58,241 bases of DNA from Patescibacteria group bacterium (lineage in GTDB: Bacteria > Patescibacteriota > Minisyncoccia > Phycocordibacterales > UBA9973), in contig JAGWLB010000005.1 of NCBI GenBank assembly GCA_028865035.1, positions 1 to 58,241 on the forward strand, read 5' to 3'. Both the position numbers and the translations under genes were made by a program. The notes below the pieces were generated by a model that made no database searches, was not told the origin of the DNA, and worked only from the letters and a program-made list of their open reading frames with translations. This document shows, one piece after another, positions 2,558-44,770 of the stretch (position 1 is the first letter of the stretch; each line of letters begins with the position of its first letter).

Positions 2558-3211
2558 ATGTATCAAAATAGATCTGAAGCAGGAAAACAATTATCTAAAA
2601 GACTCATTAAATATAAAAATAATAAGGAGGCAATTGTCTTGGCATTACCTCGTGGAGGTGTGGTACTTGGGTATGAGATTGCCGAAGCGCTAAACCTACC
2701 CCTAGATATAGTTGTAGTGCGTAAAATTGGCCATCCTAGTAATCCTGAATATGCTATATGTGTTGTAAACGAAAATGGTTCGCTTTTATGCGACGAACCT
2801 GAATATAAATACATAGATCAGAATTGGCTTAAAAAAGAAATTTTAAAACAAAAAGTCGAAGCACAAAGACGTATAAACCTTTATAGAGGAGAGAGGAAGC
2901 CGGTAGAAATTACTGGTAAGGTTGTTATTATTGTTGATGATGGTATTGCTACAGGACTTTCAATGCAACTCGCTATACGTTCTGTAAAAATACAATCACC
3001 CAAAAGGATTATCGTAGCTGTACCAGTGGCACCATCAGATTCAAAATCTTTCATACACGAAGAAGGCGCTGATGAGATTATTACTCTAGAGCCTTTTGAA
3101 GAATATATGGGTTCTGTCGGTTCTCATTATTTAAATTTTGAACAAATCCAAGATGATAAAGTTGTTCAATTACTAAAATTATCATACGAAAAGTATAAAG
3201 ATCTAGTCTAA
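2558..3211 (+). CDS. phosphoribosyltransferase-family protein
   Basis: PRPP-binding loop VVIIVDDGIATGLSM and N-terminal LPRGGVVLGYEIA. Confidence 0.7.
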   Translation: MYQNRSEAGKQLSKRLIKYKNNKEAIVLALPRGGVVLGYEIAEALNLPLDIVVVRKIGHPSNPEYAICVVNENGSLLCDEPEYKYIDQNWLKKEILKQKVEAQRRINLYRGERKPVEITGKVVIIVDDGIATGLSMQLAIRSVKIQSPKRIIVAVPVAPSDSKSFIHEEGADEIITLEPFEEYMGSVGSHYLNFEQIQDDKVVQLLKLSYEKYKDLV

Positions 3212-10938: not shown

Positions 10939-11025
10939 GGAGGCGTGGATGAGTGGTTTAAATCAACGGTTTACTAAACCGTCGTACTTTAATCGGTACC
11001 GTGAGTTCGAATCTCACCGCCTCCG
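10939..11025 (+). tRNA. type II tRNA with Ser identity features and an apparent ACT anticodon
   Basis: GGAGGCG-TG-GAT-GAGTGGTTTAA-ATC-A-ACGGT-TTACTAA-ACCGT-(variable arm)-GTGAG-TTCGAAT-CTCAC-CGCCTCC-G. Confidence 0.7.
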
Positions 11026-11124
11026 CAGTAAGAAAAAAGTATCGGCACACCCATCGTCATATGGCTGTAGTGTGATCCGAATGCCCGATTACCCAAAAGA
11101 CTTGTTTTAAGCTAAAATTAGAGC

Positions 11125-12156: not shown

Positions 12157-12263
12157 GCCCGCATTTACAAAATATGAGCCCTTTAGGGCCATTTTGTTAT
12201 GCGTAGGCGAGCAAAGTATCTACATACTTTGCGTGTGAGATTCGAAAATCTTTCCCCTACGAG
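12157..12263 (+). repeat. structured intergenic repeat R1 (hairpins followed by a T-arm-like CGTGTGAGATTCGAA)
   Basis: Homologous to 13019-13106: shared GCCCGCA, GGCGAG, a hairpin, and an exact 15-mer CGTGTGAGATTCGAA at 12232-12246 and 13088-13102. Confidence 0.6.
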
Positions 12264-12282
12264 ATTCCTCGTGGAAAAGGTG

Positions 12283-12288
12283 TATAAT
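12283..12288 (+). promoter_or_regulatory. -10 box TATAAT, 6 nt upstream of the ATG at 12295
   Basis: Read directly. Confidence 0.45.
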
Positions 12289-12294
12289 TTACAT

Positions 12295-12942
12295 ATGTAT
12301 TTCCATGGAGATAGAAATAAAAAAAATATTGCAATTACTTTTGATGATGGACCATCAGAAGAAACTCTTAATGTTTTAGCCATATTGAGAAAGTACAATA
12401 TTAAAGCAACATTTTTTATTGTTGGTAAGATGATAAAAAATAGAGAATCTATTATAGAAGCTATTAAAAAAGATGGCCACGAATTTGGAAATCATACTTT
12501 CTCACATAAAAGATTGTGGTTTAAATCAAAAAAGTTTATTAAGGAAGATATACAAAAATGTGATAATGAGTTACAAATATTTGGTATTAAAACTAATCTT
12601 ATTCGTTTTCCAGGATTAAAATATGGATTGAATGCTATTAAAATTTGCAAACTTTTAAATAAAAAAGTAATCGCTGTTGATTTTATAACTTTAAATCAAT
12701 TTGCTTGGGATTGGTTTAATCCATGGTTAAAGAAAATAGGATTAATTAAAAATAATATTAAAATCGACAAAGTAGTGAAAGTTACAGTAAAAAATACCAA
12801 AAATGGCTCAATATTAGGTTTCCATGATTATTTACAAGAAATAGGTCCTCACCCTGAATTATCCCCTATCTTAGAAGATATTTTGCCAAAACTGCAGATG
12901 AAGGGTTTTGATTTTGTAACCATTTCTGAGTTGTTAAATTAA
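12295..12942 (+). CDS. polysaccharide deacetylase (NodB homology domain)
   Basis: ITFDDGP and HEFGNHTFSH motifs. The start at 12295 is chosen because the longer ORF runs through repeat R1. Confidence 0.8.
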   Translation: MYFHGDRNKKNIAITFDDGPSEETLNVLAILRKYNIKATFFIVGKMIKNRESIIEAIKKDGHEFGNHTFSHKRLWFKSKKFIKEDIQKCDNELQIFGIKTNLIRFPGLKYGLNAIKICKLLNKKVIAVDFITLNQFAWDWFNPWLKKIGLIKNNIKIDKVVKVTVKNTKNGSILGFHDYLQEIGPHPELSPILEDILPKLQMKGFDFVTISELLN

Positions 12943-12979
12943 GTAATAATATAAAATATCATTTTCAGTATTTTAACCC

Positions 12980-13022
12980 TTATTCCCCAACAATCCAGTT
13001 CCAACTACGTACCATACTGCCC
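12980..13022 (+). repeat. 43-nt post-gene repeat A: TTATTCCCCAA..AGTTCCAACT..GTA..ATA...CCC
   Basis: Aligns with 13731-13772. Confidence 0.55.
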
Positions 13023-13106
13023 GCAAAAAAAAGAAGACCCGAAAGGGTTTTTCTTTTTGCGGGCGAGAAAGAGAACTGCTTCTCTTTCGTGTGAGATTCG
13101 AAGACC
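13019..13106 (+). repeat. structured intergenic repeat R2 (long hairpin CCCGCAAAAA...TTTTTGCGGG, second hairpin, then CGTGTGAGATTCGAA)
   Basis: See R1. Confidence 0.6.
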
Positions 13107-13189
13107 TTTTTTTATTTTCGAAAAGTGTACTCACTGTCTAATCACCGCATCAACAAGCAATCATTAAATATGTTAAAATAATCTTACTG

Positions 13190-17025: not shown

Positions 17026-18190
17026 TATCCCAAAGGGCGCCAGCAACATTGTGTGCTTGGCCAACAAGAGGGAAGTGATGCAAATCTATGAAAGGAGCAC
17101 TGTTACACTCAATTACTCCAGATTTAGGTTGATCTTTCCAAGATATACTCACGTCATTCATAATAAAATCTACACCAATGAGAGGATCATCTAGAGTCTC
17201 AGCAACTTTCTCAAGCATTTCTTTGTTATCGGGATGTACTGCATCTGTCACGTCTGTAATACCACCACCGACAGCACGACTAGTTTTTTGACCTAAAGTC
17301 ACTACTTCATCTTTCTCAGGAATTGTATTTTCTGTTCTGTTGAAATGCTTCAATTCTTTTATCGCTTCTTCATCTATTGATAATTTATGGAATATAGGTC
17401 CTGAGCGGAGAGGGTTTTTATTTGCTATCTCAACAAGCTCAGATACTTTATGTACTCCATCCCCAATAACATAAGCGGGTTCACGGCGTAGAACAGCTAT
17501 CAATTTTTTACCTATAAGTGTTCCTCTAAATACAAAACCACTAAGTTCTTCTTCAATCATAACCCAAGGACTTAGTTGTTTTGCTTTCTTAAAAGCAATT
17601 AAAAATTCCTCATCGGTTTCTATGTGAGTAGTTGTGTGCCTGCTACGTGAACCTATATTTGGTTTAGTAATTACTGGTTTATCTAACGAATGAAAAATTT
17701 CCAATGCTCTAGATTGAGAATAAGTAACATCACCTTTAGCAACAGGTATACCTACTTTTCTAAAATGTTTTTTCATTTCATTCTTATTATCCATCCATTC
17801 TAAACCATTCGGGTTATAGTCTTTAGGTCGTGGTAACACATCAAAAAACCTTTTTTGACCTTTATAGTTGGATATGAATATATCGTGACCTATATTAAAC
17901 AAATGAAATTCATACATACCAATACCTCTTTTTGTTGCTTCATCCCATAATACTCGAGTCCTGTTACTGTCATCATCTTTCGGTTCGATTGTAATCTTTC
18001 CTAAATGTAAGAATTTTAAAGTTTTTATTAATCCTGGTCCAACCCACTCAAACTGTTCTTCCGGTATTAATCGACTCATAAAGTTGGTCCATGGTTCAAT
18101 TAATGCTCCCATTAATATAGATAAATAAGTGAATTTATGATTTACTTGGCTACCACCACAATCTTTGCAGTATGTTTTCTTCTTTTTCAT
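16991..18190 (-). CDS. ATP-grasp enzyme resembling the N and G (ATP-grasp) domains of cyanophycin synthetase, without a Mur-ligase-like domain
   Basis: KKHFRKVGIPVAKG, KPVITKPNIGSRSRH, GGGITDVTDAVHPDN, IGVDFIM and ECNSAPF resemble the CphA G-domain. Confidence 0.6.
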   Translation of the reverse strand: MKKKKTYCKDCGGSQVNHKFTYLSILMGALIEPWTNFMSRLIPEEQFEWVGPGLIKTLKFLHLGKITIEPKDDDSNRTRVLWDEATKRGIGMYEFHLFNIGHDIFISNYKGQKRFFDVLPRPKDYNPNGLEWMDNKNEMKKHFRKVGIPVAKGDVTYSQSRALEIFHSLDKPVITKPNIGSRSRHTTTHIETDEEFLIAFKKAKQLSPWVMIEEELSGFVFRGTLIGKKLIAVLRREPAYVIGDGVHKVSELVEIANKNPLRSGPIFHKLSIDEEAIKELKHFNRTENTIPEKDEVVTLGQKTSRAVGGGITDVTDAVHPDNKEMLEKVAETLDDPLIGVDFIMNDVSISWKDQPKSGVIECNSAPFIDLHHFPLVGQAHNVAGALWDIIYPESKIHQL

Positions 18191-35682: not shown

Positions 35683-35852
35683 GTATTGTTATTTATTCTG
35701 GAGACTCGACCTCTACAAGGTCAGTACACCTTTCATATTTATTCAGATGAGTACATTTTCATAAATAAATTCAAGGTCTTCGATTCCTCCATGAAAAGCC
35801 GTTCAGGCTTTTCTCGCACTACACAAACAAATACTTTGTATTTATCTGTTTG

Positions 35853-43121: not shown

Positions 43122-43236
43122 ATAAATGTAATTGTACCTCAGCACGAGCCTATTTTCAATTGTTTTTCTTGGGTTTTGTGGTAATATATCGAAGTTAGAG
43201 TATATTGCCGACTCAAAGTGAAATAAAATAGTATAT

Positions 43237-43307
43237 TGCCAGATCGTCTAATGGTAGGACACCTCCCTCTGGAGGAGGTTATCTTGGTTCGAGTCCAGGT
43301 CTGGCAG
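43237..43307 (+). tRNA. tRNA-Gln(CTG)
   Basis: TGCCAGA-TC-GTCT-AATGGTA-GGAC-A-CCTCC-CTCTGGA-GGAGG-TTAT-CTTGG-TTCGAGT-CCAGG-TCTGGCA-G. Confidence 0.9.
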
Positions 43308-43329
43308 CAGGTAGCGTAGCGTAGGAAGC

Positions 43330-43474
43330 TGCCAGAAGTATGTGGGAGTACCCGCATACGCCCTGGACGAGAAAACCCTGAGTATATCGCACGGAGTGTA
43401 GCGAGTACGATACGAAAGGTGTACAGAATCTGTAAGATTCGAGAAGCGTACTCGCGGTCCAGGTCTGGCAGCCA
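43330..43474 (+). ncRNA. G+C-rich tRNA-like element (or decayed tandem tRNA-Gln copy) with perfect acceptor and T stems and an encoded CCA
   Basis: TGCCAGA ... hairpin 43338-43359 ... CCTGG ... stem 43401-43409/43447-43455 ... CCAGG-TCTGGCA-G-CCA. Confidence 0.35.
43457..43472 (+). repeat. exact 16-nt repeat of the tRNA-Gln 3' end (GTCCAGGTCTGGCAGC; first copy 43293-43308)
   Basis: Direct comparison. Confidence 0.85.
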
Positions 43475-43516
43475 GCACGAGCGAGGTTATTACGCTCGAG
43501 TCTAAATAAAAACTAT

Positions 43517-44770
43517 ATGAAAAAAAAGGATTTAGCGGAAAAATTAAAATTAATTAGAAGTCTTAAAAAGGAAGATGGATTTGATAATGATAAAGAAATA
43601 GAAGAAATCATTATCCCTTTGATTAAGGAGTTATTCGAAGAAAAAAAATATAAAGACATTGTAGAAATTTTTTTGAAGACTCTTAGTGCAGAAGATCCTG
43701 GTTATTATGAGTTTGAGACAGCATATTCTTTTGACAATTTAGGGAAACAAGATGAGGCCGAGGAAATATATGATTCTTTGCTTTTTTTTGACGGTGGCAA
43801 CACCAGCGTTCTTAATAATCTTTCTAATATAAAGAAAAATAAAGGTGAAATGAATGAGGCATGGGATTTAATTAAAAAAGCATTTGAGCTTACTAAAGGG
43901 AAAGATGAAGTTGTAAAAAGAAATTATAACTCTTTATTAAAAATTGTTGAAGAACAAAAACAAATTGATTATCTTTTTGAATCAGCTAAAAATTCTTTAG
44001 AAAAAGAAACAAAATGGGCTATATCTAAATTAGAATATTTTTTGATAAACGTTCTCAAAGATTCAGAATACAAAGACGGACAAATCCCTATAGCTCGATG
44101 GAAATTTAAGGTAATGATGGGTGTGGATGAAGAAAAAGCTTCTTCCTTGCGTGATCAGTGGATAAACAAAGGTTATATAAAAGTACTAGAAAAAAGAAAC
44201 GAACATGGAGTACAATTTTACAAAATAAATCCCAAATTATCATCATTTATAAAACAAGTTAAACCCGTAGATTTAAATAATGAATGGTTTAAGGGTATAG
44301 ATAATGTAAATCGAGAGTCTTTAGAAAAGTGTGGATATTTTAATCTGCTTAAAAAAATTGAACATGTAAGCGTTAAATATAAAAGTTTAGTAAAAAGAGA
44401 TTATGATGAATTGGTATTTAATTATCTTCTGGGAAATAAAAAGTCAACAATTATTAACTCTGGTTCTTTCTTGGAGTTATTATTTACATATTTTTGTGAA
44501 AAGAAGAAAATCTTATCAATCAGCTATACAATTAATAATAAGATAGTTAATAAAAAATTGCATGAGTCTAATCTAAATGATTTTCTAAGTTATTTCGAGG
44601 AGAAACAAACATTTAAAACTATTATTGTATCTCTTGGAGAAGTAACTCGGATTTATAGAAATTTTATTCATCCGGGTAATGAAATAAGAAATAAGGAAAA
44701 GTTAGATATGCAAAAAGCTGAATTGTGTTTCTTCTCGGTTAATCAAATAGCAAACTATTTGCTCAAATAG
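43517..44770 (+). CDS. TPR-repeat / winged-helix-like protein with possible C-terminal HEPN-like domain
   Basis: TPR-like N-terminal repeats. The C-terminal segment is TRIYRNFIHPGNE (R..RN..H). Confidence 0.45.
   Translation: MKKKDLAEKLKLIRSLKKEDGFDNDKEIEEIIIPLIKELFEEKKYKDIVEIFLKTLSAEDPGYYEFETAYSFDNLGKQDEAEEIYDSLLFFDGGNTSVLNNLSNIKKNKGEMNEAWDLIKKAFELTKGKDEVVKRNYNSLLKIVEEQKQIDYLFESAKNSLEKETKWAISKLEYFLINVLKDSEYKDGQIPIARWKFKVMMGVDEEKASSLRDQWINKGYIKVLEKRNEHGVQFYKINPKLSSFIKQVKPVDLNNEWFKGIDNVNRESLEKCGYFNLLKKIEHVSVKYKSLVKRDYDELVFNYLLGNKKSTIINSGSFLELLFTYFCEKKKILSISYTINNKIVNKKLHESNLNDFLSYFEEKQTFKTIIVSLGEVTRIYRNFIHPGNEIRNKEKLDMQKAELCFFSVNQIANYLLK

Follow-up and report, generated by a model that had tools for sequence, protein, structure and literature searches.

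R1, a structured element behind tRNA and tmRNA genes in one family of Patescibacteria, is a likely non-autonomous insertion element

Introduction

Tycheposons are integrative elements that reside in tRNA or tmRNA genes and restore the 3′ end of the gene (bioRxiv 10.1101/2020.12.28.424599). The multi-copy structured element studied here, which was found behind a tRNA-Gln gene of a Patescibacteria group bacterium and is labelled R1 in the following, resembles tycheposon-like elements in several respects: tRNA or tmRNA genes serve as targets, the unit lies between a full tRNA and a partial 3′ copy, the tRNA stays intact, later arrivals push earlier ones downstream (seen in genome G077), and remnants pile up. 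R1 differs from tycheposons in that it carries no integrase or other gene and measures only about 120–165 nt, contains both an antisense and a sense copy of its target, keeps its fold by compensatory changes, and occurs with the same core but with arms for different tRNAs.

Integron attC and CTX phage attP(+) are folded single-strand recombination sites. attC sites do not match their target and need IntI, and CTX uses XerCD at dif. In R1, as in these sites, the structure is kept while the stem sequence varies, the folded strand would rebuild a duplex, and no gene lies inside. Unlike for attC, no integron integrase was identified in the genome, and the target of R1 is the T-loop of a tRNA. The junction strands of R1 are conserved in sequence as well, which is another difference to attC and attP(+).

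The bridge RNA of IS110 and the EBS/IBS pairs of group II introns share with R1 that the element holds the complement of its own insertion target, beside that target. In R1, however, the arms comprise 12–15 nt within one interrupted helix and there is no protein. A DEDD transposase (PF01548) and a reverse transcriptase (RVT_1, PF00078) each gave 0 matches in the genome, the latter also separating R1 from a retroelement, and R1 has no Rfam intron or ribozyme match. Viral tRNA-like structures, mascRNA and the tRNA-like domain of tmRNA resemble R1 in acceptor- and T-like helices that can stack, and the R1 copy studied here ends in G-CCA. In contrast to these structures, the T-loop of R1 is interrupted by about 90 nt, an anticodon or D arm is missing, the CCA is not conserved, and the helix sequence follows the neighbouring gene. 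R1 also differs from a MITE, since it has no constant terminal inverted repeats (its arms fit each local tRNA) and no target duplication of fixed length (5 to 31 nt), and from tmRNA, which ARAGORN does not call at the element; the ordinary tmRNA of this genome is on contig C1.

Results

Anatomy of the R1 copy behind tRNA-Gln(CTG)

The window, that is, the whole stretch of 58,241 nt that was analysed, is contig C16 of a 735-kb genome with a completeness rating of 100%. The R1 copy behind tRNA-Gln(CTG) and its surroundings consist of the following features:

43237-43307/8, plus strand: tRNA-Gln(CTG), intact, without encoded CCA (ARAGORN; Rfam RF00005, 58.3 bits)
43294-43308, plus strand: first copy of the repeated block, comprising T60, the 3′ strands of T-stem and acceptor, the discriminator G and a C, an exact repeat of 43458-43472
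43309-43327, plus strand: spacer, the loop of a possible long hairpin of the tRNA 3′ strand with the antisense arm
43328-43336, plus strand: P1 5′ strand, a 2-bp extension (GC) and the antisense of the acceptor 3′ strand, pairing with 43464-43472
43338-43359, plus strand: P2, a 9-bp tetraloop hairpin that exactly separates the acceptor-antisense segment from the T-stem-antisense segment
43362-43367, plus strand: P3 5′ strand, antisense to the 3′ strand of the T-stem, and an A that pairs with T60
43368-43374, plus strand: junction motif J3/4, family consensus NNNGAAR (alignment columns)
43375-43420, plus strand: P4 arm, of a subtype common to the Gln(TTG) copy of this genome and to copies in genomes G077 and G112
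43421-43425, plus strand: junction J4/5 with the conserved GUACW motif
43426-43440, plus strand: P5, a 5-bp hairpin with a conserved UGUAA loop, whose 3′ strand runs into the T-loop copy
43438-43443, plus strand: copy of the T-loop bases of tRNA-Gln (TTCGAG), compared by eye with each tRNA
43444-43457, plus strand: P6 module, 14 nt inserted after T-loop position 59 and before position 60 (3-bp hairpin with UACU as its loop, then GG)
43458-43474, plus strand: second copy of the block (43458-43472) and CA, giving G-CCA
43475-43500, plus strand: hairpin-forming trailer after R1

The first copy of the repeated block belongs to the working tRNA-Gln. Within the window the 14-nt block of T-stem and acceptor 3′ strands occurs exactly at 43294 and 43458 only; five further matches have 2–3 mismatches each, and a total of 7 matches was reached in 0 of 100 shuffles. 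The 145-nt stretch folds with a minimum free energy of −58.1 kcal/mol (z = −5.12), and none of 200 shuffles folded equally well.

Much of this anatomy had been described in an initial annotation made from the sequence alone. The second TGCCAGA (43330-43336), the 9-bp hairpin at 43338-43359, the CCTGG at 43362-43366 and the end CCAGG-TCTGGCA-G-CCA at 43459-43474 are present as it had placed them. The element is indeed rich in G+C compared to its surroundings (0.52 across the element versus 0.20–0.35 downstream), and the two minus-strand ORFs across it, taken there as non-coding, have no Pfam match at E ≤ 1. The acceptor-like helix is present, but its full extent had been missed: it is 2 bp longer (43328-29 with 43471-72), and the first C of the "CCA" is therefore paired. 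A proposed 9-bp inner stem can indeed form between GCGAGTACG (43401-43409) and CGTACTCGC (43447-43455), but it is not a helix of the family; in relatives its 3′ partner forms the separate 3-bp hairpin P6, which covaries, and the segment is missing in two of the three closest cores. What had been read as an echo of the anticodon arm is the 5′ strand of the T-like stem P3 together with the junction motif, and this motif is also found in copies behind other tRNAs.

ARAGORN called a tRNA only at 43237-43308 and not at the element, which has neither a D arm nor an anticodon arm. A search of Rfam, which the initial annotation had proposed, gave for 43150-43560 a tRNA match to the genuine tRNA alone; no ribozyme, intron or other Rfam family matched the element at E ≤ 10, and only the tRNAs of the window reached the gathering score.

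Six helices are supported by compensatory changes

Across the family, R1 is a non-coding unit of about 120–165 nt. From the 5′ end, a spacer is followed by the 5′ strand of P1 with its 2-bp extension, one base, and P2, a 9-bp hairpin that usually has a CUGC tetraloop. After another single base come the 5′ strand of P3, including the A that pairs with T60, a junction motif, and P4, a long variable arm. The GUACW junction leads to P5 and to bases that copy T-loop positions 55–59 of the local tRNA. In most copies the 14-nt P6 follows, and the unit ends with the sense copy of T60, T-stem, acceptor and discriminator and with 0–15 further bases. By their antisense and second sense copies these segments form P1 as an acceptor-like and P3 as a T-like helix. 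P3 closes a four-way junction of P3, P4, P5 and P6, the joining strands of which are conserved.

In 40 aligned copies 91.9% of the cells were paired, versus 36–47% when the partners were slid, and changes on both sides were found at 37 of 40 pairs; the observed values were reached in 0 of 500 shuffles. These numbers come from an alignment fitted to the R1 model, in which P1 and P3 vary by construction with the tRNA and P2, P4 and P5 do not. For P1 all 9 pairs showed both-side changes across the family. The values for P2 were 98.8% of cells paired with 9 of 9 pairs changed on both sides, and for P5 96.7% with 4 of 5 pairs. P6 occurred in five covarying stem variants among the 40 copies, and the module is missing in short forms. 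The six helices of R1 around a conserved junction are supported by compensatory changes. The initial annotation had made its reading depend on conservation of the helices in relatives, and there they are kept.

On the tRNA-sense strand G-U pairs outnumbered A-C pairs (51 versus 23, binomial p = 0.0015, a value that overstates the evidence as the copies are related). For P2, P4 and P5 alone the excess was weak (19 versus 10, p = 0.14). The excess is thus no more than a hint that the sense strand folds, either as RNA or as single-stranded DNA. A pseudoknot between J4/5 and the P6 loop was considered and rejected, since variants of the P6 loop were not matched by changes in J4/5.

R1 is a multi-copy family behind tRNA and tmRNA genes

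A covariance model built from three copies found R1 at 13 places of the 735-kb genome at E ≤ 10, 12 of them distinct and one being the antisense of the copy at tRNA-His. Four matches lie in the window: 43328-43472 and the following three:

35691-35822, minus strand: R1 copy behind tRNA-Met, with a second 3′-end copy that is cut short (covariance model, E = 0.037)
13057-13150, plus strand: R1 copy with Ser-type arms and without P5 (covariance model, E = 7.6e-7)
12202-12290 (model match to 12349), plus strand: 5′ half of R1 that breaks off immediately behind J4/5, with a NodB-like ORF coming next (covariance model)

The broken copies at 12202-13150 lie between single genes. In the stretch 12202-12942 the R1 half stops after a GUAYA junction and an ORF for a NodB-type polysaccharide deacetylase directly follows; this join may be the site at which a gene was inserted into the element. 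The row of single genes interspersed with broken R1 copies is headed by a tRNA-Ser (10939-11026, Rfam 57 bits) with the unusual anticodon ACT (A at position 34), and the acceptor 5′ strand and the T-stem/acceptor 3′ end of this tRNA are identical to those of tRNA-Ser(TGA) on contig C12. An orphan module of J4/5 and P5 was seen elsewhere in the genome (C12:152943-152968), just after a terminator-like hairpin and far from tRNA genes.

At E ≤ 0.001 R1 matched in 94 of 151 sampled genomes of the same family, and as often as 14 times in a single genome; 150 sampled genomes from other families of the phylum gave no match at E ≤ 1e-5. The core of the window copy recurs in this genome behind tRNA-Gln(TTG) on contig C4 and behind tRNA-His on contig C12, and it is 84.5–90.1% identical to the cores of the Gln(TTG) copy and of the copies in G077 and G112. 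When all 40 tRNA genes were scanned for downstream repeats of their 3′ ends, further copies were found at Tyr, Leu(TAA), Ser(TGA), Ser(CGA), Ala and Arg(CCT). Altogether the R1 architecture and core were observed behind His, Ser, Leu, Tyr, Glu, Gly, Ile, Thr, Val, Trp, Arg, Pro and tmRNA genes. A tRNA or tmRNA on the same strand was located upstream of R1 in 23 of 29 loci of relatives, with a gap of at most 51 nt in 22 of these 23; three of the remaining six loci are near contig ends.

No protein family recurred among the neighbours of 41 R1 loci. In phage records only the tRNA part of the element region found a match. Viral contigs of IMG/VR gave 0 hits for a pattern of J4/5 and P5 and 16 hits for a P6 pattern, none of which was confirmed by the covariance model or lay beside a matching tRNA. 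A description of an R1-like element was found neither in Rfam nor in the literature searched, and by these sources R1 appears to match no described family.

The arms of each copy fit the local tRNA

In each R1 copy the sequence of its own tRNA recurs from T-loop position 60 (54/55 in short forms) up to the 3′ end plus a few bases, and the repeated block usually starts 15 nt before the tRNA end called by ARAGORN (−15 in most loci). Such a segment from the T-loop to the 3′ end is typical for insertions into tRNA genes. The exact run shared by the tRNA 3′ end and the 3′ end of the element ranged from 5 to 31 nt across 23 loci, the shortest runs being decayed or partial matches. The start of R1 is the exact Watson–Crick antisense of the repeated stretch, split by the hairpin P2. 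In other copies the bases of the T-loop copy also track their own tRNA or tmRNA, as judged by eye.

The origin of the antisense arm can be read from positions at which the tRNA itself has a wobble pair or a mismatch. In the window copy, P3 has a C-G pair in place of the U-G pair of tRNA-Gln. At 21 loci all 14 comparable sites were Watson–Crick in R1, and the tRNA's own base was found at none of them. It follows that the template of the antisense arm, or the strand against which the arm is selected, is the 3′ strand or its DNA complement rather than the 5′ half of the tRNA.

In many copies the spacer between tRNA and R1 is a terminator-like palindrome; the window copy has no terminator-like site at this position. 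The encoded CCA that had been reported for the window copy is present there, but it is not a conserved feature: the tRNA gene lacks an encoded CCA at 20 of 24 loci, and at only 3 of these 20 is the element followed by CCA. CCA as a sign of copying from mature tRNA was rejected on the same count, C being the usual first trailer base anyway. Among the 24 family tRNA genes examined, encoded CCA was scored in only four (the call of a tRNA-His is doubtful), and in ten the three bases after the discriminator are C-A-A. Three relatives with an empty site (L054, L056, L058) encode CCA on their tRNA-Gln(CTG), and the trailer at 43475-43500 resembles the sequence directly after tRNA-Gln(CTG) in relatives without R1 (moderate similarity, by eye). 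Given the CCA of the empty sites and the resemblance of the flank, the G-CCA of the window copy is probably the original 3′ end of the tRNA-Gln gene.

Occupied and empty sites, and cores shared between tRNAs

To compare orthologous sites we used ten loci of the same genus in which tRNA-Gln(CTG) lies beside a LOG-family gene. R1 was present in two of them (L048, L050), a third (L052) showed a weak R1 hit and a 3′ fragment, and seven had no R1. One of the latter, L051, has a tRNA identical to that of the window, its contig stopping 40 nt after the tRNA. Truncated, nested and piled-up R1 copies occur as well. No excised or empty form of the window copy was detected: contigs from four DNA runs cover the element exactly, without a joint that skips it.

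Two cores from different genera, one behind tRNA-Leu(TAG) in G077 (L149:15224-15349) and one behind tRNA-Gln(CTG) in G112 (L039:1501-1632), are identical at 70 of 71 positions. The core of the window copy is 88.7–90.1% identical to both, and in each case the arms and T-loop bases fit the local tRNA. The acceptor-antisense segment of the Leu copy of G077 comprises only 4 nt, and this copy has no P2. Such identity across genera is not proof of de novo retargeting, because near-identical cores could also be spread by gene conversion between resident copies. An argument from a "foreign T stem" in the Tyr copy was dropped because the same motif occurs in the Cys copy.

A genome-wide search for copies of tRNA 3′ ends identified, beyond the element copies and tRNA genes with similar ends, a single extra case: the 3′ end of tRNA-Ile(TAT), which is encoded on contig C1, has a distant copy near position 3602 of contig C3 (minus strand, 1 mismatch in 14 nt). 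This copy may mark the far border of a larger insert.

Recombinases and other candidate partners

The unit of about 165 nt contains no ORF with a Pfam match, and a site-specific recombinase of its own was not found within it. A Y1 transposase gave no match in the genome. As in most genomes of the family, there is one tyrosine recombinase, apparently Xer-like and encoded on contig C12 at 17384-17893.

Large serine recombinases are encoded twice in this genome and were found in 105 of the 151 family genomes. One of the two is a 510-aa ORF (C12:201481-203064) in which the antisense of the tRNA-Ser(GGA) 3′ end supplies the C-terminal codons. The 3′ end of a convergent tRNA directly adjoins the recombinase gene in 18 of 30 serine recombinase loci, and these layouts involve Ala, Glu, Tyr, Arg, Ser, Val, His and Asn tRNA genes. 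In G077, tRNA-Tyr is followed by a 6-kb serine-recombinase element, then by a second 3′-end copy, an R1 copy and a cut third copy. The type-B core behind tRNA-Tyr and tRNA-Cys in the genome of the window ends with the same 15 nt as this 6-kb element. From this layout and the common 15-nt end it follows that R1 and the serine-recombinase elements share a site and stack in the manner of tycheposons. The recombinase-proximal end of these elements, however, has no spacer, antisense arm or P2.

The presence of a serine recombinase was not associated with that of R1 among the 151 genomes (64/30/41/16 for both, R1 only, recombinase only and neither; odds ratio 0.83, p = 0.72). The 30 genomes that have R1 without a serine recombinase match include G141 with 14 R1 matches and G104 with nine, and none of the 30 serine recombinase loci had R1 within 1.5 kb. 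With neither association nor adjacency, a serine recombinase was rejected as a required enzyme for R1.

At L052 an 81-aa GIY-YIG ORF (2813-3058) lies between tRNA-Gln and the 3′ fragment of R1. This ORF family is present in 127 of the 151 family genomes, a single genome having as many as 8 matches. A tRNA within 1.5 kb was found at 13 of 30 GIY-YIG loci (L065-L094) and was always tRNA-Gln; R1 adjoined only one of the 30. We regard the ORF as an independent neighbour, or a cassette, of tRNA-Gln and not as a component of R1. At L065 and L074 at least, the stretch from the tRNA to the GIY-YIG ORF can form a long hairpin.

Discussion

The position of R1 behind tRNA and tmRNA genes, its anatomy, the covariation of its helices, the polymorphism of its sites and the sharing of its cores are all observed in the family. 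The reading that we consider likely is that R1 is a non-autonomous structured insertion element of one Patescibacteria family that has as its target the 3′ ends of tRNA and tmRNA genes, more exactly the border of T-loop and T-stem.

A different view of the same anatomy, which the initial annotation had also considered, is that R1 is an expressed RNA that mimics tRNA, being co-transcribed with the upstream gene and cut by RNase P and RNase Z at the acceptor-like helix so as to serve as a processing signal, decoy or regulator; the arms would then fit the neighbouring tRNA only because each copy arose locally. Its acceptor- and T-like helices can stack, P2 then taking the place at which the D and anticodon arms would branch off, and the strongly conserved joining strands of the four-way junction, the preference for G-U over A-C on the sense strand and the missing terminator-like site between tRNA and element in the window copy are all in favour of such an RNA. 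The terminator-like palindrome that separates many other copies from their tRNA speaks against it, as do the additional 2 bp of the outer helix and the CCA after only 3 of 20 copies at CCA-less tRNA genes. The element is also missing at orthologous sites of the same genus, exists in truncated, nested and piled-up copies, and has no tRNA or other Rfam match at E ≤ 10, and we regard a tRNA mimic as unlikely. Even less can be said for a decayed tandem duplicate of tRNA-Gln, one of the readings of the initial annotation, which the family data already contradict. The 5′ acceptor strand is identical to that of the tRNA, T-loop bases are repeated, and a short relative copy in L088 has a 12-nt match to the anticodon arm. 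However, the same non-tRNA core is found behind at least 13 other tRNA types and tmRNA, the arms are not copies of the tRNA 5′ strand, all 14 wobble or mismatch positions of the tRNA that could be compared carry the complement of the 3′ strand instead, and neither a D or anticodon arm nor a tRNA call by ARAGORN or Rfam exists. A duplicate is very improbable.

The closest of the earlier readings is that of an attachment-site scar, which accounts for the repeated block from the T-loop to the 3′ end, yet it is too passive: the roughly 130 nt between the block copies are not debris but a conserved folded module with covariation. In its explicit form this explanation takes R1 for the leftover ends of elements that were carried by a serine or tyrosine recombinase and have lost their interior by deletion. 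The frequency of serine recombinase elements (105 of 151 family genomes), the recombinase genes abutting convergent tRNA 3′ ends (18 of 30 loci) and the 15-nt end of the G077 element, identical to the type-B core end, fit it, and so does the downstream displacement of older elements in tandem, which is described for tycheposons (bioRxiv 10.1101/2020.12.28.424599). A scar would not be expected, however, to keep six helices through compensatory changes, or an exact antisense arm, or a core that is identical at 70 of 71 positions across genera and different tRNAs. The recombinase-proximal ends of the elements, which lack spacer, antisense arm and P2, and the 30 R1 genomes without a serine recombinase match (G141 with 14 R1 and G104 with 9 among them) also disagree with a passive origin, which appears rather improbable to us.

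If R1 is an insertion element, it would enter the tRNA gene at the T-loop/T-stem border and leave the tRNA whole. It might bring a replacement 3′ end together with a terminator-like spacer, in which case the original 3′ end (here with CCA) would be pushed downstream, or its insertion might duplicate the target. The folded single strand, DNA or RNA, would rebuild a duplex copy of the target, and by analogy with attC and attP(+) this duplex may be the substrate for recognition or recombination. Since R1 encodes no protein, the enzyme would have to act in trans. The large serine recombinases, which use the same position in tRNA genes, and the single Xer-like tyrosine recombinase are candidates. 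That no enzyme is tied to R1 counts against the insertion reading, as does the lack of an excised or empty form of the window copy in the four DNA runs; by our own reasoning, a double-stranded circle of 165 bp would also be hard to form.

The swap of arms between tRNAs is left unexplained by the first of these two routes, because an R1 that brings its own 3′ end would break a different tRNA. A bolder version of the insertion reading is that R1 is a mobile element without protein that retargets itself, the antisense guide being rewritten from each new target with only host or borrowed enzymes, so that a single core could settle at any tRNA or tmRNA gene. It fits the 14 wobble corrections at 14 sites, the core shared at 70 of 71 positions with Leu arms in one genus and Gln arms in another, and the lack of a linked gene. 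We regard self-retargeting as possible, though doubtful. If true, it would be a new way for DNA or RNA to pick an insertion site by base pairing.

Whatever its explanation, R1 is a large structured family that is supported by covariation and missing from Rfam. It marks insertion hot spots in the genomes of this family and is a source of false "tRNA-like" calls in them. If R1 moves, it would be a very small, gene-free mobile unit that finds tRNA genes by a built-in copy of its target. It would then be relevant to the turnover of DNA, by gain and by loss, at the tRNA genes of ultra-small genomes, and it could lead to an insertion mechanism that is programmable and based on pairing.
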